The position numbers and the translations under genes were made by a program. From NCBI RefSeq assembly GCF_055900595.2, contig NZ_CM148325.1: DNA of 64,000 nucleotides; one strand, given 5' to 3'. The notes under the pieces are model-generated. The model worked only from the letters and a program-made list of their open reading frames with translations. It was not told the DNA's origin and did no database searches. Shown here piece by piece: positions 944-7,416 of the stretch (positions are counted from its first letter, which is position 1; every line of letters begins with the position of its first letter).

Positions 944-1675
944 ATGAATCAACCAATACACAATGCTTACTGGTTATCCCGTTTTGACAGCCTTCTCGAC
1001 AGTGCCCTGGTGCAGCACCGTGCCGTCTCGTTAATTCGGGTGGATTTACGTTTTCCTGAGTATATGCCTGCCACTATTATGGATACCGATTTAGATTCAG
1101 CAGTGATTTCTCGTTTTTTCGAATCCCTGAAAGCAAAAATTCAGGCTTACCAGCGGAAAAAACGACGTGCCAACAAGCGTGTGCATGCAACCACTCTGCG
1201 TTATTTCTGGTGTCGGGAGTTTGGCAAGGAAAAAGGCAGGAAACATTATCACGTGATATTACTGCTCAACAAAGATACCTGGTGCTCGCCAGGGGATTTC
1301 ACCGTTCCTTCTTCGCTGGCGACGCTGATCAAGCTGGCATGGTGTAGCGCTCTGCATCTTGAGCCCTGGCAGGGTAATGGACTGGTTCATTTTTCCAGGC
1401 GGGCGCCTTTCCGTAAACCGACATCATCTGATGCTCGCCCTTCTTCCGATGATACGCCTTTGTCGGGTGGATGTTCTGATACCCGGAAAGCTTCTGACAA
1501 AAAATCTGGTGGATCCGCTGTGCTCTGGGTCAAGCGTGGTGATGTGGAAGCGATGCAGAAAGCCATGGAGAGAGCCTGTTATCTCGTGAAGTATGAGACG
1601 AAGCAGCATGACGGTTCTGGTCAACGTAATTATGGTTGCAGTCGTGGGCCGGGGCGTTTACTGGATGGCAGGTGA
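944..1675 (+). CDS. Rep-like protein (YfjJ/YagK 'inovirus Gp2'-type), HUH motif
   Basis: 243-aa ORF; motif KHYHVILLL (His-hydrophobic-His) and downstream Tyr/Lys patch YLVKYETK; N-terminus LIRVDLRFPE shared with paralogs at 6028 and 6841. Confidence 0.55.
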   Translation: MNQPIHNAYWLSRFDSLLDSALVQHRAVSLIRVDLRFPEYMPATIMDTDLDSAVISRFFESLKAKIQAYQRKKRRANKRVHATTLRYFWCREFGKEKGRKHYHVILLLNKDTWCSPGDFTVPSSLATLIKLAWCSALHLEPWQGNGLVHFSRRAPFRKPTSSDARPSSDDTPLSGGCSDTRKASDKKSGGSAVLWVKRGDVEAMQKAMERACYLVKYETKQHDGSGQRNYGCSRGPGRLLDGR

Positions 1676-1739
1676 GCCCTGTAAAACGGCATCCGGTGCC
1701 TGAGCATACGTCACGTAATTAACTGTCTTGACCAACAAA

Positions 1740-2425
1740 ATTATGGAGTAACCTGATGGCAGGATTCATTACATTTCTTTGTTCTTTCTGAGTATCGCAT
1801 TCAGGATGGTCAGCAGTTTGCGCATACAGGCTACCAGCACCGCCGTAGTCATTACGCCGATGCCTTTAATGTTGCTCAGGTGCTCAGCTGGTTCTTTAAA
1901 ATGGTTCCGGATGTGGGTGTTCATCTTCCAGCGCTTTGATGATATTAATGTTTTTTTTGCTTTGCGGGTGAGCCGGGTACAACCTGTTTTGCTCAGTAAC
2001 TGGCATTGCGATCAACTGGTGTCTGCAAACGACTATGGCATTAAGAACCTGACGTTCTGCATCCGGCAAAGTCCGGATAAAGCGGTCTCGTTCCGGATGG
2101 TAATTAATAACTGCAGCCATCTGGGCAAAAAAACCGCGCATCATGCGGGTCAGTCTTCGCCAGATATCCCATCGCACGGGCAAAGTCACGAGCTTGCCTG
2201 GGGTTAACTACGGCGATCTCAAAACCTTCGGGCTGAAACGCACAGGTTATGGCGGCCTTCCATCAACACAAAGGCCATATCGTGCTGCCTCAGTTCAGCG
2301 ATGATGAAATCAACGCCGTCAGCACCACTGGCAACAGAAAACCGTTCAATAGTGTTGCTGGCGGTAATATCCAGCGTTGTTTTGGACACATCGGTATCAA
2401 CACAAAGTGGATTTGGCAGACTCAT
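1740..2425 (-). pseudogene. IS110-family transposase N-terminal remnant (frameshifted)
   Basis: Minus-strand ORFs 2219..2425 (MSLPNPLCVDTDVSKTTLDI...[24 protein letters not shown], typical IS110 N-terminus) and 1896..2189 are in different frames. Confidence 0.45.
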
Positions 2426-2858
2426 TATTGCCCATTCTTGCTAATGCGTTATGGAGTACGGACAACTGTTCGGGTTTCAGATGAGTGGCTCAGCGTATGC
2501 GCCATTTGCTTACATATGGGCTTAAACCCTAAGGGGCACCAGGCTGCATACGCTTTGCCAAATCTGTTCGCTGCTCATGATAACGAAGAACCAGGATACA
2601 AGGTGGAAGATCCTCAACGCTCAGGGGCGCAATGTTCCCTGTGTTTCATGCCCCCATCGTTTGTTGCTGTGGTGCCAGACTTCTGAGGCACCTCCATGTC
2701 GTTTTGCTTTTGTCAGCATCATAAATGCGTCGGGACTGGTGAATGGATACAAGTCATTTTATTATCGACGTCAGCGAACATACTCACTATGTCGGTATAT
2801 TTCTGAACTGAACAGTAAGTTTTGCGTTGATTACAGTATGCGAAGGAGGTCCATTACA

Positions 2859-4463
2859 ATGAATCCCGATTATGTGCAATCCTTGCAGACATCCCACCAC
2901 TTCCCAGCTGATTTAACCTACAGATTATTTCCTAGTGAGCTTGCGTATCTCATTGACGACTTATATGAAAGTACCCAACTTCCGTTGGAGCTCATTTTTA
3001 ATACTGTACTGGCAACGCTCTCACTCTCCTGTCAGTCATTGGTTGACGTTGTTCATCCTCACACCAACATGCCGGAACCCTGCTCACTTTATCTGTTGGC
3101 AATCGCAGAGCCAGGCGCGGGAAAAACAACGATAAACAGACTGGTGATGAACCCCTGTTACGAATTTGCCGATCGACTCATTCAACAATACGAAGAGAGA
3201 AACAAAGATTATAAGACTGAACTACAGATCTGGAATACCCGGCAGAAAGCGCTTGCTGCCAATTTAAGAAAGGTTGTTAACCGGGGGTATCCGGGGGAAC
3301 AGGAAGAAGAGGCGCTGCGTAATCACGAAAGAAATAAACCGACACGTCCGGTTCGACCGAATTTTATCTATGAAGATGTTTCGCTTAAAGCGCTTGTGGA
3401 AGGGCTCAATGAACATCCTGAGGCAGGGGTTATTTCTGATGAGGCGGTCACTTTTTTCAGAAGCTATCTGAAAAATTATCCGGGCCTGTTGAATAAAGCA
3501 TGGAGTGGGCAACCGTTTGATTTTGGACGGGCTGACGAGAAATACCATATCGCGCCACGTCTGACATTTTCGTTAATGTCTCAGCCGGATGTCTTTACGA
3601 ATTATATAAATAAAAATGACGTACTGGCGTGGGGAAGCGGATTTCTTTCCCGGTTTCTGTTCAGTCAGGTTGTAAGTTCTTCCTGGATACGTGATTATAC
3701 GAGAGGTGAGTTCAGAACAATATCAACCCTGGAGAACTTTCATAAAAAGATTAACGGATTCCTGTTAAACCACAACATTAATTTCCCCGGCATGAGCACC
3801 GAAAGGAAGACATTAAAACTTGCGAAGAAAGCGTTGGGGGAGTGGCAGGAAAACCAGATTAAGATTGAAAGAAAAGCGCTTGCAGGCGGGGAGTGGGAAC
3901 ACATCAGAGATATTGTTCTGAAAGCAGGCTCTAATATACTGAGGATAGCTGGAATATTCACCTGCTATTGCTATAAAGATGCTGAGGAAATTGAATCAAT
4001 TACGCTTTTTAAAGCTATGCATCTCATGGACTGGTATCTGGAGGAGGCGAGCACAATATTTTATCCCATGTCTGCACGATGCCAGTTTGAACAGGATGCC
4101 TGTGAACTGTATGCATGGATTATGACCCGAATAAGGCAGAATAATTGGCGTGCTATCAGGAAAACAGACATTGAAAGATATGGTCCCAATCGACTGAGAA
4201 GAGCAGAAAAACTTACACCTGTACTCAATCAGTTAATCTGTCAGGGGTATTTATGTATCATCAGAATGCGATCGCATCAGGCACTTTATGTTTCTGTTTA
4301 TTGTAACAATGGTTACCTCCTTCCTTTAGGCGCAATGTATTACGAACAGTTTGATATTGTTCTACCCGAGAATATTCATAAAGCGAAAGCATATCACGTT
4401 AATATTCCACCGGAATTAATTCCGTCATTTGCGTCACCTTTTTCAGAGTATAGCTTATTTTGA
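2859..4463 (+). CDS. P-loop NTPase, YfjI-like (DUF3987-type) satellite/prophage replication-associated protein
   Basis: Walker A AIAEPGAGKTT; ATG at 2859 preceded by GAAGGAGG Shine-Dalgarno; the track ORF from 2577 is an unsupported upstream extension. Confidence 0.5.
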   Translation: MNPDYVQSLQTSHHFPADLTYRLFPSELAYLIDDLYESTQLPLELIFNTVLATLSLSCQSLVDVVHPHTNMPEPCSLYLLAIAEPGAGKTTINRLVMNPCYEFADRLIQQYEERNKDYKTELQIWNTRQKALAANLRKVVNRGYPGEQEEEALRNHERNKPTRPVRPNFIYEDVSLKALVEGLNEHPEAGVISDEAVTFFRSYLKNYPGLLNKAWSGQPFDFGRADEKYHIAPRLTFSLMSQPDVFTNYINKNDVLAWGSGFLSRFLFSQVVSSSWIRDYTRGEFRTISTLENFHKKINGFLLNHNINFPGMSTERKTLKLAKKALGEWQENQIKIERKALAGGEWEHIRDIVLKAGSNILRIAGIFTCYCYKDAEEIESITLFKAMHLMDWYLEEASTIFYPMSARCQFEQDACELYAWIMTRIRQNNWRAIRKTDIERYGPNRLRRAEKLTPVLNQLICQGYLCIIRMRSHQALYVSVYCNNGYLLPLGAMYYEQFDIVLPENIHKAKAYHVNIPPELIPSFASPFSEYSLF

Positions 4464-6594: not shown

Positions 6595-6624
6595 AGCTTA
6601 AGGCCTGAGCCTCCGCTCCTGGAA

Positions 6625-6686
6625 ACACTCCGTCGGTAAAACCTTACCGCCTTGATTAATGATGTGAACTGAAGTCAACGGAGATC
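6625..6686 (+). repeat. Conserved leader element copy 2
   Basis: ggtaaaaccttaccgccttgattaatgatgtgaactgaagtcaacggagatc vs cgtaaagttttaccgcggtgattaatgatgtgaagtcaa...caacggagatc at 871..936. Confidence 0.6.
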
Positions 6687-6840
6687 ATTCACCCTGAACC
6701 TGCATCCGGTGTTCTGTCCCTTATCTTCCCGTTCTGCTTCAGTTCTTCACTTATTCCATCAATCTCATCCGCAAGCCATAACACGTCAGCTCATTCACGG
6801 GCAGGACGCATTGTGGGCTGCGCATAACGGAACATATCTT

Positions 6841-7416
6841 ATGAATGCTATTCCTTATTTCGACTATAGCCTGGCACCCTTCTGGCCATCTTATCAGAAC
6901 AAAGTCATCGGCGTCCTTGAGCGTGCGCTGCGTGAGCAGTCCGGCTCACGGATACGGCGGATCCTGCTTCGTCTGCCGTGGGAACATGACAACGCCTTCA
7001 ACAGCAGACAGACCTGGTTTGGTATGGATTTTATCGAAACCGTCAGTGCGCTGATGAATGCGAAACCCGGACGCGACCTTTGCTGGCTCCTGACCCGTCA
7101 TCCGGAAAAGCCGGAATACCACGTGGTGCTGTGCGTCAGACAGGAGTATTTCGACGGCCCCGAACTGGACCGGCTGATTCTGGATGCCTGGAGCAACGTA
7201 CTGGGCTTCGCGTCACCGGGGGAAGCGGCACCGTACCAGAAACAGATAACCCGGGATGTGGTGCTGGACAGTCGTTCACCGGACTGCGAAGACATCCTCA
7301 AAGATTTGATCTGGGCGTTCAGTGATTTCGCCCGCGATCGTCGTGGTGTGTGCGATCCGGAAGCCCGTTGCCTCGCCGGTAATCCCGGCTATCCCGGATC
7401 TGCAGGACCGTTCTGA
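6841..7416 (+). CDS. Rep-like protein paralog with degenerate HUH motif
   Basis: Internal Met of track ORF 6709..7416; MNAIPYFDYSL...RRILLRLPWEHDN...PEYHVVLCV aligns with the other two paralogs, but the first His of the motif is replaced by Glu. Confidence 0.45.
   Translation: MNAIPYFDYSLAPFWPSYQNKVIGVLERALREQSGSRIRRILLRLPWEHDNAFNSRQTWFGMDFIETVSALMNAKPGRDLCWLLTRHPEKPEYHVVLCVRQEYFDGPELDRLILDAWSNVLGFASPGEAAPYQKQITRDVVLDSRSPDCEDILKDLIWAFSDFARDRRGVCDPEARCLAGNPGYPGSAGPF

Follow-up and report, generated by a model that had tools for sequence, protein, structure and literature searches.

Intact and catalytically degenerate YagK/YfjJ-type Rep-like proteins encoded together in an Escherichia coli island

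Why would a bacterial genomic island keep several relatives of rolling-circle replication (Rep) proteins next to each other, if some of them appear to have lost the residues needed for catalysis? This question is raised by a stretch of 64,000 nucleotides (nt) of contig NZ_CM148325.1 (NCBI RefSeq assembly GCF_055900595.2), called the window in the following. An earlier note on this DNA, made from the letters alone, had singled out three open reading frames (ORFs) as paralogous Rep-like genes of the His-hydrophobic-His (HUH) endonuclease type, one of them with a degenerate motif. The sequence comparisons described below indicate that positions 944–8512 hold four paralogs that diverged long ago and belong to the YagK/YfjJ ('inovirus Gp2'-type) branch of the HUH rolling-circle Rep superfamily. 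The genes, referred to as c1 to c4, are:

944–1675, plus strand: c1, YfjJ/YagK-type Rep-like HUH protein, predicted to be intact, 243 amino acids (aa)
6028–6594, plus strand: c2, Rep-like HUH protein of the REP_ORF2-G2P-like subfamily, predicted to be intact, 188 aa
6841–7416, plus strand: c3, predicted catalytically degenerate paralog, 191 aa
7964–8512, plus strand: c4, fourth paralog, UCP030791/PF27752 family, 182 aa

Homology of the four proteins

The coordinates of the first three ORFs and the motif strings quoted for them were verified. These strings are LIRVDLRFP, KHYHVILLL and YLVKYETK in c1, LRMDFFY, GFHAHAVFWI and YLAKEEQK in c2, and IRRILLRLP and PEYHVVLCV in c3. Pairwise BLASTP comparisons of the three proteins gave nothing significant or co-linear, the best E-values of 0.001–0.2 being found on non-equivalent segments, and the claim of paralogy had therefore to be tested at the profile level. 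A hidden Markov model search for the family profiles gives a strong Pfam match for c1, a weak one for c2 and none directly for c3, with PF11726 present on members of the c3 subfamily.

Next to these searches, the family alignments were compared with each other using hhalign, with the bridging sequence P0210 assigned to the c1 family and kept out of the c3 family. The c1 and c2 families match with an E-value of 1e-8 in an alignment of 169 columns that brings both motifs into register, and the c1 and c3 families match with an E-value of 1.1e-14 and a probability of 98.3. For c4, E-values of 1.1e-13 against the c1 family and 2e-6 against the c3 family were obtained. The comparison of the c2 and c3 families is insignificant (E = 0.04–0.13). 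A shallow c3 alignment, consisting of sequences that are ~90% identical, was also tried against the c2 family and was found to be uninformative; relatives of ~30% identity are required for this comparison.

Single sequences that connect the copies point in the same direction. With P0210 as tblastn query, c1 is found at 1.5e-27 and c3 at 1.2e-8, while P0187 finds c3 at 2e-21 and c1 at 5e-6, and L006_c4, a relative of c4, finds c4 at 3e-14 and c1 at 4e-8. In a joint alignment of 34 sequences the His-x-His blocks co-align, as HYH in c1, HAH in c2 and EYH in c3. With the profile matches present and the His blocks aligned, the earlier observation stands, and the membership of c1, c2 and c3 in the HUH Rep-like (YagK/YfjJ, 'inovirus Gp2') family is supported by profiles as well as by bridging sequences. 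The count of three copies, on the other hand, has to be amended: the three named ones are homologous, but c4 had been overlooked.

The protein c3 is connected to the family through a set of relatives. Close homologues of c3 were found in E. coli only, and an exhaustive profile search yielded as full-length relatives of ~30% identity P0187 and P0193, followed by P0203–P0206 and P0210. The last of these is a canonical family member (HYH, SYFAKERTK) that matches the c3 profile with an E-value of 2e-17. Precomputed tables record PF11726 on the subfamily members P0187, P0193 and P0203–P0206, and in a fresh Pfam scan the domain was found at E ≤ 0.001 in 4 of the 12 sequences of the c3 alignment, the best value of 4.5e-50 presumably belonging to P0210.

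One could argue that c3 is not related to c1 and c2 at all, and that its motifs resemble theirs by chance. The insignificant pairwise BLAST results are what this would predict, as are the zero matches of c3 itself in direct searches of Pfam, NCBIfam and PHROG, and the E-value of 0.04–0.13 between the c2 and c3 families. However, the c1 and c3 family profiles match at 1e-14, bridging sequences exist, PF11726 is found on subfamily members, and a model of c3 resembles predicted models of family members with template modelling (TM) scores of 0.7–0.78 (see below). A chance likeness is thus extremely improbable, and the idea that c3 is non-homologous is effectively refuted already.

Intact and degenerate catalytic sites

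As judged from the sequences, c1 and c2 keep the complete catalytic signature, that is, a strand with motif 1, the His-hydrophobic-His block on the strand after it, a Glu located upstream, and a helix with Tyr-x-x-Lys. The earlier statement that two copies combine the HUH block with a downstream Tyr/Lys patch is thereby borne out, with HYH and YLVK in c1 and HAH and YLAK in c2, and the HUH and Y-x-x-K residues are invariant in both of these families.

In c1, motif 1 is LIRVDLRFP and is followed by H101-Y102-H103 and by Y213-L-V-K216. The protein matches PF11726 with an E-value of 1.6e-36, PF23343 (REP_ORF2-G2P) with 3e-7, and several PHROG families of 'replication initiation protein' with 3e-6 to 2e-3. 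An annotated Microvirus replication initiation protein is recovered with E-values of 2e-11 by BLASTP, 4e-7 by profile and 8e-5 by database tblastn. The BLASTP alignment spans LRYFWCREFG…HYHVILLLNK and then RACYLVKYETKQ / RIHYLTKYVTKQ, such that the patterns RYF.C.E.G…HYHVIL and YL.KY.TKQ are shared. The HUH and Tyr motifs of the Microviridae (VP4) and inovirus/plectrovirus-type G2P/ORF2 initiators (PF23343) thus match c1 in detail. The island proteins differ from these viral initiators in being only ~190–240 aa long, which corresponds roughly to the nuclease domain, in being chromosomal, and in having no capsid or morphogenesis genes with them.

The reading frame of c1 is intact in the window and frameshifted in the best-matching genome. 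The protein has a low-complexity insertion of ~38 aa, rich in Ser, Asp, Lys and Pro (window 1391–1510, residues ~150–190), located after the last strand and before the helix with the Tyr motif. The insertion is shared by close E. coli and plasmid relatives and is absent from K-12 YfjJ, YagK and all other aligned members. A homologue of c1 with 42% identity is also present in a record named 'Escherichia phage ECO111 5-P' (L020, OR844780.1). This record was considered as evidence for a phage origin and rejected; it is a 4.5-kb unannotated low-coverage contig with the status UNVERIFIED_ORG, and is probably not a phage genome but DNA from a bacterial island or a plasmid.

In c2, the HUH block is H86-A-H88 and the Y motif is Y156-L-A-K159. 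The Pfam matches are weak to marginal (PF23343, 9.8e-5; PF11726, 3.3e-4). The c2 family is 39–96% identical across Escherichia, Enterobacter, Citrobacter, Salmonella, Serratia and Xenorhabdus, and H86, H88, Y156 and K159 are invariant in an alignment of 19 of its sequences.

The situation is different for c3 and c4, of which c3 appears to keep the second His only and c4 to be stripped of everything catalytic. Motif 2 of c3 reads E92-Y93-H94, which confirms that Glu replaces the first His as the earlier note had pointed out, and the catalytic Tyr was found to be lost as well (Asp162). At the position of the Y motif the protein has S161-D162-F-A-R, with Tyr replaced by Asp and Lys by Arg; the region can be compared directly as SYFAKER in P0210 and SDFARDR in c3. 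Within the subfamily, the Ser-Asp pair and Y93-H94 are invariant, and the first HUH position is occupied by Glu, Cys or Phe. The start codon of c3 is ATG 6841. An in-frame extension upstream to GTG 6709 was also considered; it is interrupted by stop codons in the sister loci and is thus not conserved, and the start was therefore taken to be at 6841.

An AlphaFold2 model of c3 was calculated using a superfamily alignment, and has a predicted local distance difference test (pLDDT) score of 84 and a predicted TM score of 0.83. A first model, obtained with an alignment of 6 sequences, had a pLDDT of 53 and was unusable. In the better model, strands are formed by residues 36–44 (motif 1), 81–86 and 92–100 (motif 2, with EYH at the start), and the helix 149–164 holds D162. 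This is the layout of an HUH nuclease, in which motif 1 and the HUH block lie on strands and the Tyr on a helix. Compared with 'Inovirus Gp2 / YagK-YfjJ' models of the AlphaFold Database (15–22% identical), TM scores of 0.70–0.78 were obtained, with E-values down to 5e-10. Among structures in the PDB, HUH nucleases are prominent, namely adeno-associated virus (AAV) Rep, parvovirus NS1, the RAYT protein TnpA-REP, SIRV1 ORF119 and IS200/IS605 TnpA. The scores are weak, at 5–13% identity, and other ferredoxin-like folds score equally well, and the fold evidence was for this reason treated as consistent rather than decisive. From these solved nucleases, c3 differs by the missing first His and Tyr. 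It should be added that a PDB sequence search with the c1 and c2 family profiles gave zero solved relatives.

For c4, T-I-R stands where the HUH block would be, and there is no Y motif; in its relatives neither the His nor the Tyr-Lys motif is conserved. A direct scan of c4 against the Pfam release used, NCBIfam and PHROGs gave no match. PF27752 is recorded on the gene at the c4 position in the related loci L004–L008 and L017–L019, some members of the subfamily have a weak PF11726 match besides PF27752, and the orthologue WP_001167445.1 is annotated as UCP030791 in RefSeq, that is, as a 'putative phage-derived protein'. The profile comparisons given above show the UCP030791/PF27752 family to be a branch of YagK/YfjJ that lacks the catalytic residues. 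Neither c3 nor c4 is predicted to be able to form the covalent Tyr intermediate.

The relation to the known members of the family can be summarized as follows. The K-12 proteins YfjJ (CP4-57) and YagK (CP4-6), of family PF11726 (YagK_YfjJ_C, formerly DUF3296 or 'Inovirus Gp2'), are both 30–31% identical to c1, and share with it the invariant HYH, Y-x-x-K, a C-terminal GCS, and the vicinity of alpA and yfjI. The differences are the insertion in c1, the marginal fit of c2 to the Pfam model, and the position of c3 and c4 outside PF11726 and without catalytic residues. Furthermore, while K-12 has one copy per island, four subfamilies are found here within 7.6 kb. RefSeq names c1 'inovirus Gp2 family protein', c2 'YagK/YfjJ domain-containing protein' and c3 'hypothetical protein', while orthologues of c4 go by 'UCP030791 family putative phage-derived protein', 'YagK/YfjJ domain-containing' or 'inovirus-type Gp2'. 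TrEMBL entries that are 94–95% identical to c3 are named 'Inovirus Gp2 family protein'.

Selection, gene order and the type of element

Five or six E. coli loci were compared with respect to the ratio of nonsynonymous to synonymous substitution rates (dN/dS). The values are ~0.25 for c1, 0.17 for c2, 0.20–0.28 for c3, 0.24–0.49 for c4 and 0.03–0.25 for alpA, and all reading frames are intact in these loci. The dead copies c3 and c4 are maintained by purifying selection and are not decaying. The third copy is more than a remnant in decay, and its altered residues (x-Y-H, and Asp for Tyr) are conserved across the whole subfamily.

The order of the genes is also conserved. An intact Rep-like gene is recurrently followed by a c3-type gene, in some cases alpA and a zinc-ribbon gene, and then a c4-type gene. 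This cassette order is seen in the metagenomic enterobacterial contigs L003 and L005–L008, with proteins of ~30% identity. A Klebsiella IncFIB/HI1B plasmid (L011) has a partial version with a Gp2-like gene, alpA, zinc-ribbon genes and a c4-type gene, and no c3-type gene. The c3-alpA-c4 block is present at a coverage of at least 80% in 1214 of the 5426 complete E. coli genomes, at up to 8 places per genome and almost always on the chromosome. The first 9.6 kb of the window are 94–97% identical to a segment of many E. coli chromosomes; of the 5426 genomes, 231 contain at least 80% of window 500–9600 and 3180 contain a part of it.

Besides the four Rep-like genes, the following features were located in the region:

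879–953, plus strand: leader block, first copy, upstream of and overlapping the c1 start
1829–2425, minus strand: IS110-family transposase fragment (tblastn, 100% identity to a fragment annotated in NZ_AP045773)
2859–4463, plus strand: YfjI-like DUF3987 protein of the helicase/primase-associated type, 534 aa
4464–6027, no strand: AT-rich non-coding spacer upstream of c2, ~35% GC, 1.56 kb
6634–6703, plus strand: leader block, second copy, ~140–200 nt upstream of c3
7485–7721, plus strand: AlpA-family helix-turn-helix protein of the excisionase/regulator type, 78 aa
8533–9038, minus strand: ProQ/FinO-family gene, frameshifted and convergent with the cassette (NCBIfam ProQ, E = 5.7e-11)

The YfjI-like and AlpA-like genes, which the earlier note had reported, are indeed present. 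The former encodes a protein that is 100% identical to a RefSeq 'YfjI family protein' and 30% identical to K-12 YfjI (E = 2e-53), and matches a PHROG 'DNA helicase' with an E-value of 3e-42. The AlpA-like protein matches the PHROG 'excisionase and transcriptional regulator' at 7.6e-10 and TIGR01764 at 4e-4, and PF05930 is found on its orthologues.

Two variants of the cassette occur in E. coli. One has the order yfjI, spacer, c2, c3, alpA, c4 (L017, L018), and the other a GTPase gene on the minus strand, c1, c3, alpA, c4 and a ProQ gene on the minus strand (L016, L019). The window has c1 from the latter, the insertion sequence (IS) fragment, and then the whole of the yfjI-c2 variant, and is therefore a composite of the two. 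The IS110 fragment at 1829–2425 marks the junction.

The same locus had been described earlier as the remnants of one or more P4-like or phage-inducible satellite elements. The part of this proposal that survives is that more than one element is involved, in the form of two joined cassette variants, while the identity as a P4-like satellite or phage-inducible chromosomal island (PICI) does not. What is shared with these satellites is the AlpA-family regulator, the DUF3987/helicase-like gene, which are the only two hallmark components in the window, and the integrated state. Genes of the sid, psu, delta, capsid-size, packaging and integrase types were not found in the region or window; specifically, there are no capsid-redirecting or packaging genes among the 7 region proteins that were scanned against PHROGs, the rest of the 64 kb being covered through the annotation of similar genomes. 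In agreement with what had been noted before, no integrase was found in the window: a search for tRNA genes and a tblastn search for an IntA-like integrase both gave none. In the sister stretches, a tyrosine-recombinase fragment occurs only outside the counterpart of the window, and there is in addition an IS-type 'integrase core domain' fragment.

The flanks in the sister genomes are of the CP4 type. In NZ_AP045773 and NZ_AP038243, the DNA immediately upstream of the segment that corresponds to the window has genes for a YeeP/YfjP-type GTPase, DUF932, KlcA-type antirestriction, RadC and the toxin-antitoxin pair CbtA/CbeA, and CP4-type flanking genes are present also in L003, L006 and L019. 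In one strain this upstream segment ends beside cadC, together with an integrase fragment, and in another beside tusA. Within the window itself lie the alpA, yfjI and yfjJ-type genes of the CP4-type backbone, for which the reference arrangement in K-12 is intA-alpA-yfjI-yfjJ. The element is thus the backbone of an E. coli island of the CP4-57/CP4-6/CP4-44 type, with its flanks known from sister genomes. It can be compared with the tmRNA-associated Pseudomonas islands (PNAS 2025; bioRxiv 10.1101/2024.08.29.610337), the core genes of which include those for AlpA, RadC, a tyrosine integrase and an 'inovirus Gp2-like protein'. These islands, which are transduced by jumbo phages, differ in genus and integration site, and no multiple or degenerate Gp2 paralogs are described for them.

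We now come to the non-coding DNA. Two long AT-rich stretches (35–38% GC) have no RefSeq genes, namely 4464–6027 (1.6 kb, upstream of c2) and 1–943 (at least 0.9 kb, upstream of c1). The ORFs of at least 50 aa within them are short (55–84 aa) and unsupported. The two stretches are 76–84% conserved compared to their counterparts in other strains, which is below the flanking genes, and are unrelated to each other; the spacer 4464–6027 is 79% identical to the equivalent spacer of L017. The spacers upstream of c1 and c2 were searched for an origin or an origin of transfer; no iterons, strong inverted repeats or significant hairpins were found, there is no Rfam match above noise, and promoter and terminator scans are at background.

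A block of ~70 nt is common to the leader and start of c1 and to the region 140–200 nt upstream of c3. It reads CCGTAAA..TTACCGC..TGATTAATGATGTGAA..TCAACGGAGATC..TGAA. The window has 3 matches to the 15-mer TGATTAATGATGTGA, versus 0.2 expected. Two of them lie at 898 and 6653, and the third, which is inverted and imperfect, at 937–951, so that c1 has an imperfect inverted repeat overlapping its start codon. In the E. coli loci L017 and L019 the block is found in front of c1 and c3, and the distant relatives lack it. Folded as single-stranded DNA (ssDNA), both strands give hairpins that are no stabler than those of shuffled sequences (z ~ −1.2 to −1.5). In view of this, and of its absence from the distant relatives, the block is not claimed to be an origin. 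It could be a common regulatory site, or a point of recombination where partners of the c1 and c2 types are exchanged.

Some further observations on the surroundings can be added. In NZ_AP045773 and L019 the ProQ/FinO-family gene has an unbroken reading frame (159 aa), in NZ_AP038243 it is frameshifted as in the window, and the intact orthologue, used as tblastn query, returns pieces in different frames of the window. In the gap between alpA and c4 (7722–7963), tblastn finds split pieces (7733–7864 and 7906–7947) of an ORF whose intact form in L019 encodes 76 aa. Distant relatives have one or two zinc-ribbon genes (DUF7828/Zn_ribbon_11) between alpA and c4, and a DUF2913 gene after c4; both are absent in the window.

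According to the annotation of similar genomes, the 55 kb downstream consist of cargo and IS elements. Window 9600–64000 is a mosaic with a LacI-type regulator, genes of an ascorbate-type phosphotransferase system and other cargo. None of the complete E. coli genomes by itself covers 80% of 9600–34000, while 34001–58000 is found in 18 genomes with up to 99.8% identity. An ALIL pseudoknot (RF01497, 51.3 bits) at 27647–27710 on the minus strand, a programmed-frameshift element of the IS3 family, marks an IS in the cargo. In relatives, the cargo next to the cassette is often related to defence or competition (L006/L008 13896–15827; L019 9971–10576; L002 7352–10001). Examples are the SMODS and S_4TM pair in L006, which resembles a cyclic-oligonucleotide-based antiphage signalling system (CBASS), the VipA/VipB proteins of a type VI secretion system in L019, and AbpAB beside yfjJ in K-12.

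Proposed function and its alternatives

The interpretation that we favour, with a probability of roughly 60%, is that the intact enzymes nick DNA for the replication or transfer of the island, and that c3 and c4 are their non-catalytic partners. Proteins of the AlpA family are excision activators or excisionases of such islands. AlpA would accordingly promote the excision of the island, after which c1 or c2 would nick one strand in a site-specific manner through a covalent Tyr-DNA link. The nick would start the replication of the excised island by the rolling-circle mode, or its transfer as a single strand, and the helicase-like YfjI protein would probably cooperate in this. The degenerate copies may act as DNA-binding partners or regulators, by recognizing the origin, by controlling the active enzyme, or by autoregulation. 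For c1 and c2, site-specific single-strand nicking is suggested as the most likely activity by the conserved catalytic residues together with the homology to viral initiators; for c3 and c4, it is the conservation and the fixed position that point to non-catalytic partners or regulators. The simplest model that we infer is nicking of the excised circle leading to rolling-circle replication, with nicking at an origin of transfer (oriT) for conjugative mobilization ranked second.

A number of points weigh against this interpretation and the assignments on which it is built. The confident profile alignment of c3 and c4 is limited to the first ~140 residues. In c4 the alignment is poor in the region of the Y motif, and in c3 the assignment of Asp as the replacement of Tyr rests on MAFFT alignments with P0210. 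The alignment behind the c3 model contained YagK/YfjJ proteins, which means that the matches in the AlphaFold Database are not fully independent. Near the genes, no origin-like hairpin, iteron array or nick site was found. Finally, the function of the family is called unknown in the literature (PMC6174562; bioRxiv 10.1101/2024.08.29.610337), and our literature search found no functional study and no published assay of any YagK/YfjJ protein.

Another option considered is that c1 and c2 are relaxases, which would nick an oriT such that the island is mobilized as ssDNA by a co-resident conjugative plasmid or integrative and conjugative element, with c3 and c4 as relaxosome accessories. Rep-derived relaxases are an accepted class (MOB_T), near-identical genomes have genes typical of conjugative leading regions beside the cassette (KlcA-like antirestriction, DUF932, RadC), and homologues of c1 are found on 64 plasmids, of which 39 are conjugative and 8 mobilizable. 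However, no oriT-like sequence was found, and the family does not appear in the list of recognized MOB classes that was consulted. Moreover, the closest characterized homologues are viral replication initiators, and the adjacent helicase-like yfjI gene fits replication equally well or better. We consider a role as relaxases to be a credible minority view, on the unlikely side. Further away is the scenario in which none of the proteins acts on island DNA, and they instead serve as regulators or decoys directed against the origins of incoming ssDNA phages or rolling-circle plasmids, as a defence or competition module. It would account for two of the four proteins being predicted incapable of nuclease activity, for the closest characterized relatives being initiators of the Microviridae and inovirus type, and for the location in islands that are rich in defence genes (AbpAB beside yfjJ in K-12, SMODS/S_4TM beside the cassette in L006). 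PADLOC, on the other hand, gave zero matches for c1–c4, and the intact catalytic residues of c1 and c2 point to an enzymatic activity; a pure defence role is in our view improbable.

The genes could also be relics in the course of decay, left by several prophage-like or satellite (P4/PICI) elements that no longer function, with c3 and c4 on the way to becoming pseudogenes. The state of the locus would fit, in that the region is mosaic, with an IS110 fragment, a frameshifted ProQ gene and neither integrase nor tRNA in the window; c1 is, in addition, frameshifted in at least one strain, and many database entries of c3 are truncated or frameshifted. This is countered by the dN/dS values of 0.2–0.5 with intact frames in all loci compared, by the invariance of the substituted c3 residues among subfamily members of ~30% identity, and by a gene order that is kept across genera, with the block found in 1214 genomes. 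The 7 region proteins scanned also include no capsid-redirecting or packaging genes. Decay is therefore just as improbable an explanation as a pure defence role.

Returning to the favoured reading of nicking enzymes with non-catalytic partners, one can speculate further that one active HUH enzyme, the dead copies c3 and c4, and AlpA form a multi-subunit machine, in which the pseudo-enzymes would serve for origin recognition or on-off control, or else as decoys for the origins of ssDNA phages or rolling-circle plasmids. This idea is a long shot. If it is true, it would be an undescribed use of inactivated HUH domains, and about one quarter to one half of E. coli genomes would have it.

It is important to point out that the result is incremental, as the family is already known to be widespread and the assignments are largely in the databases. 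What is new here is the motif bookkeeping, with two active-looking and two dead copies, the evidence for selection, the order of the cassette, and the composite origin of the locus. The YagK/YfjJ genes are among the commonest uncharacterized backbone genes of islands in E. coli and other proteobacteria. The combination of a Microviridae-type signature, dead relatives under selection, and a cassette with AlpA leads to a testable hypothesis on how these islands might be replicated, transferred or controlled.

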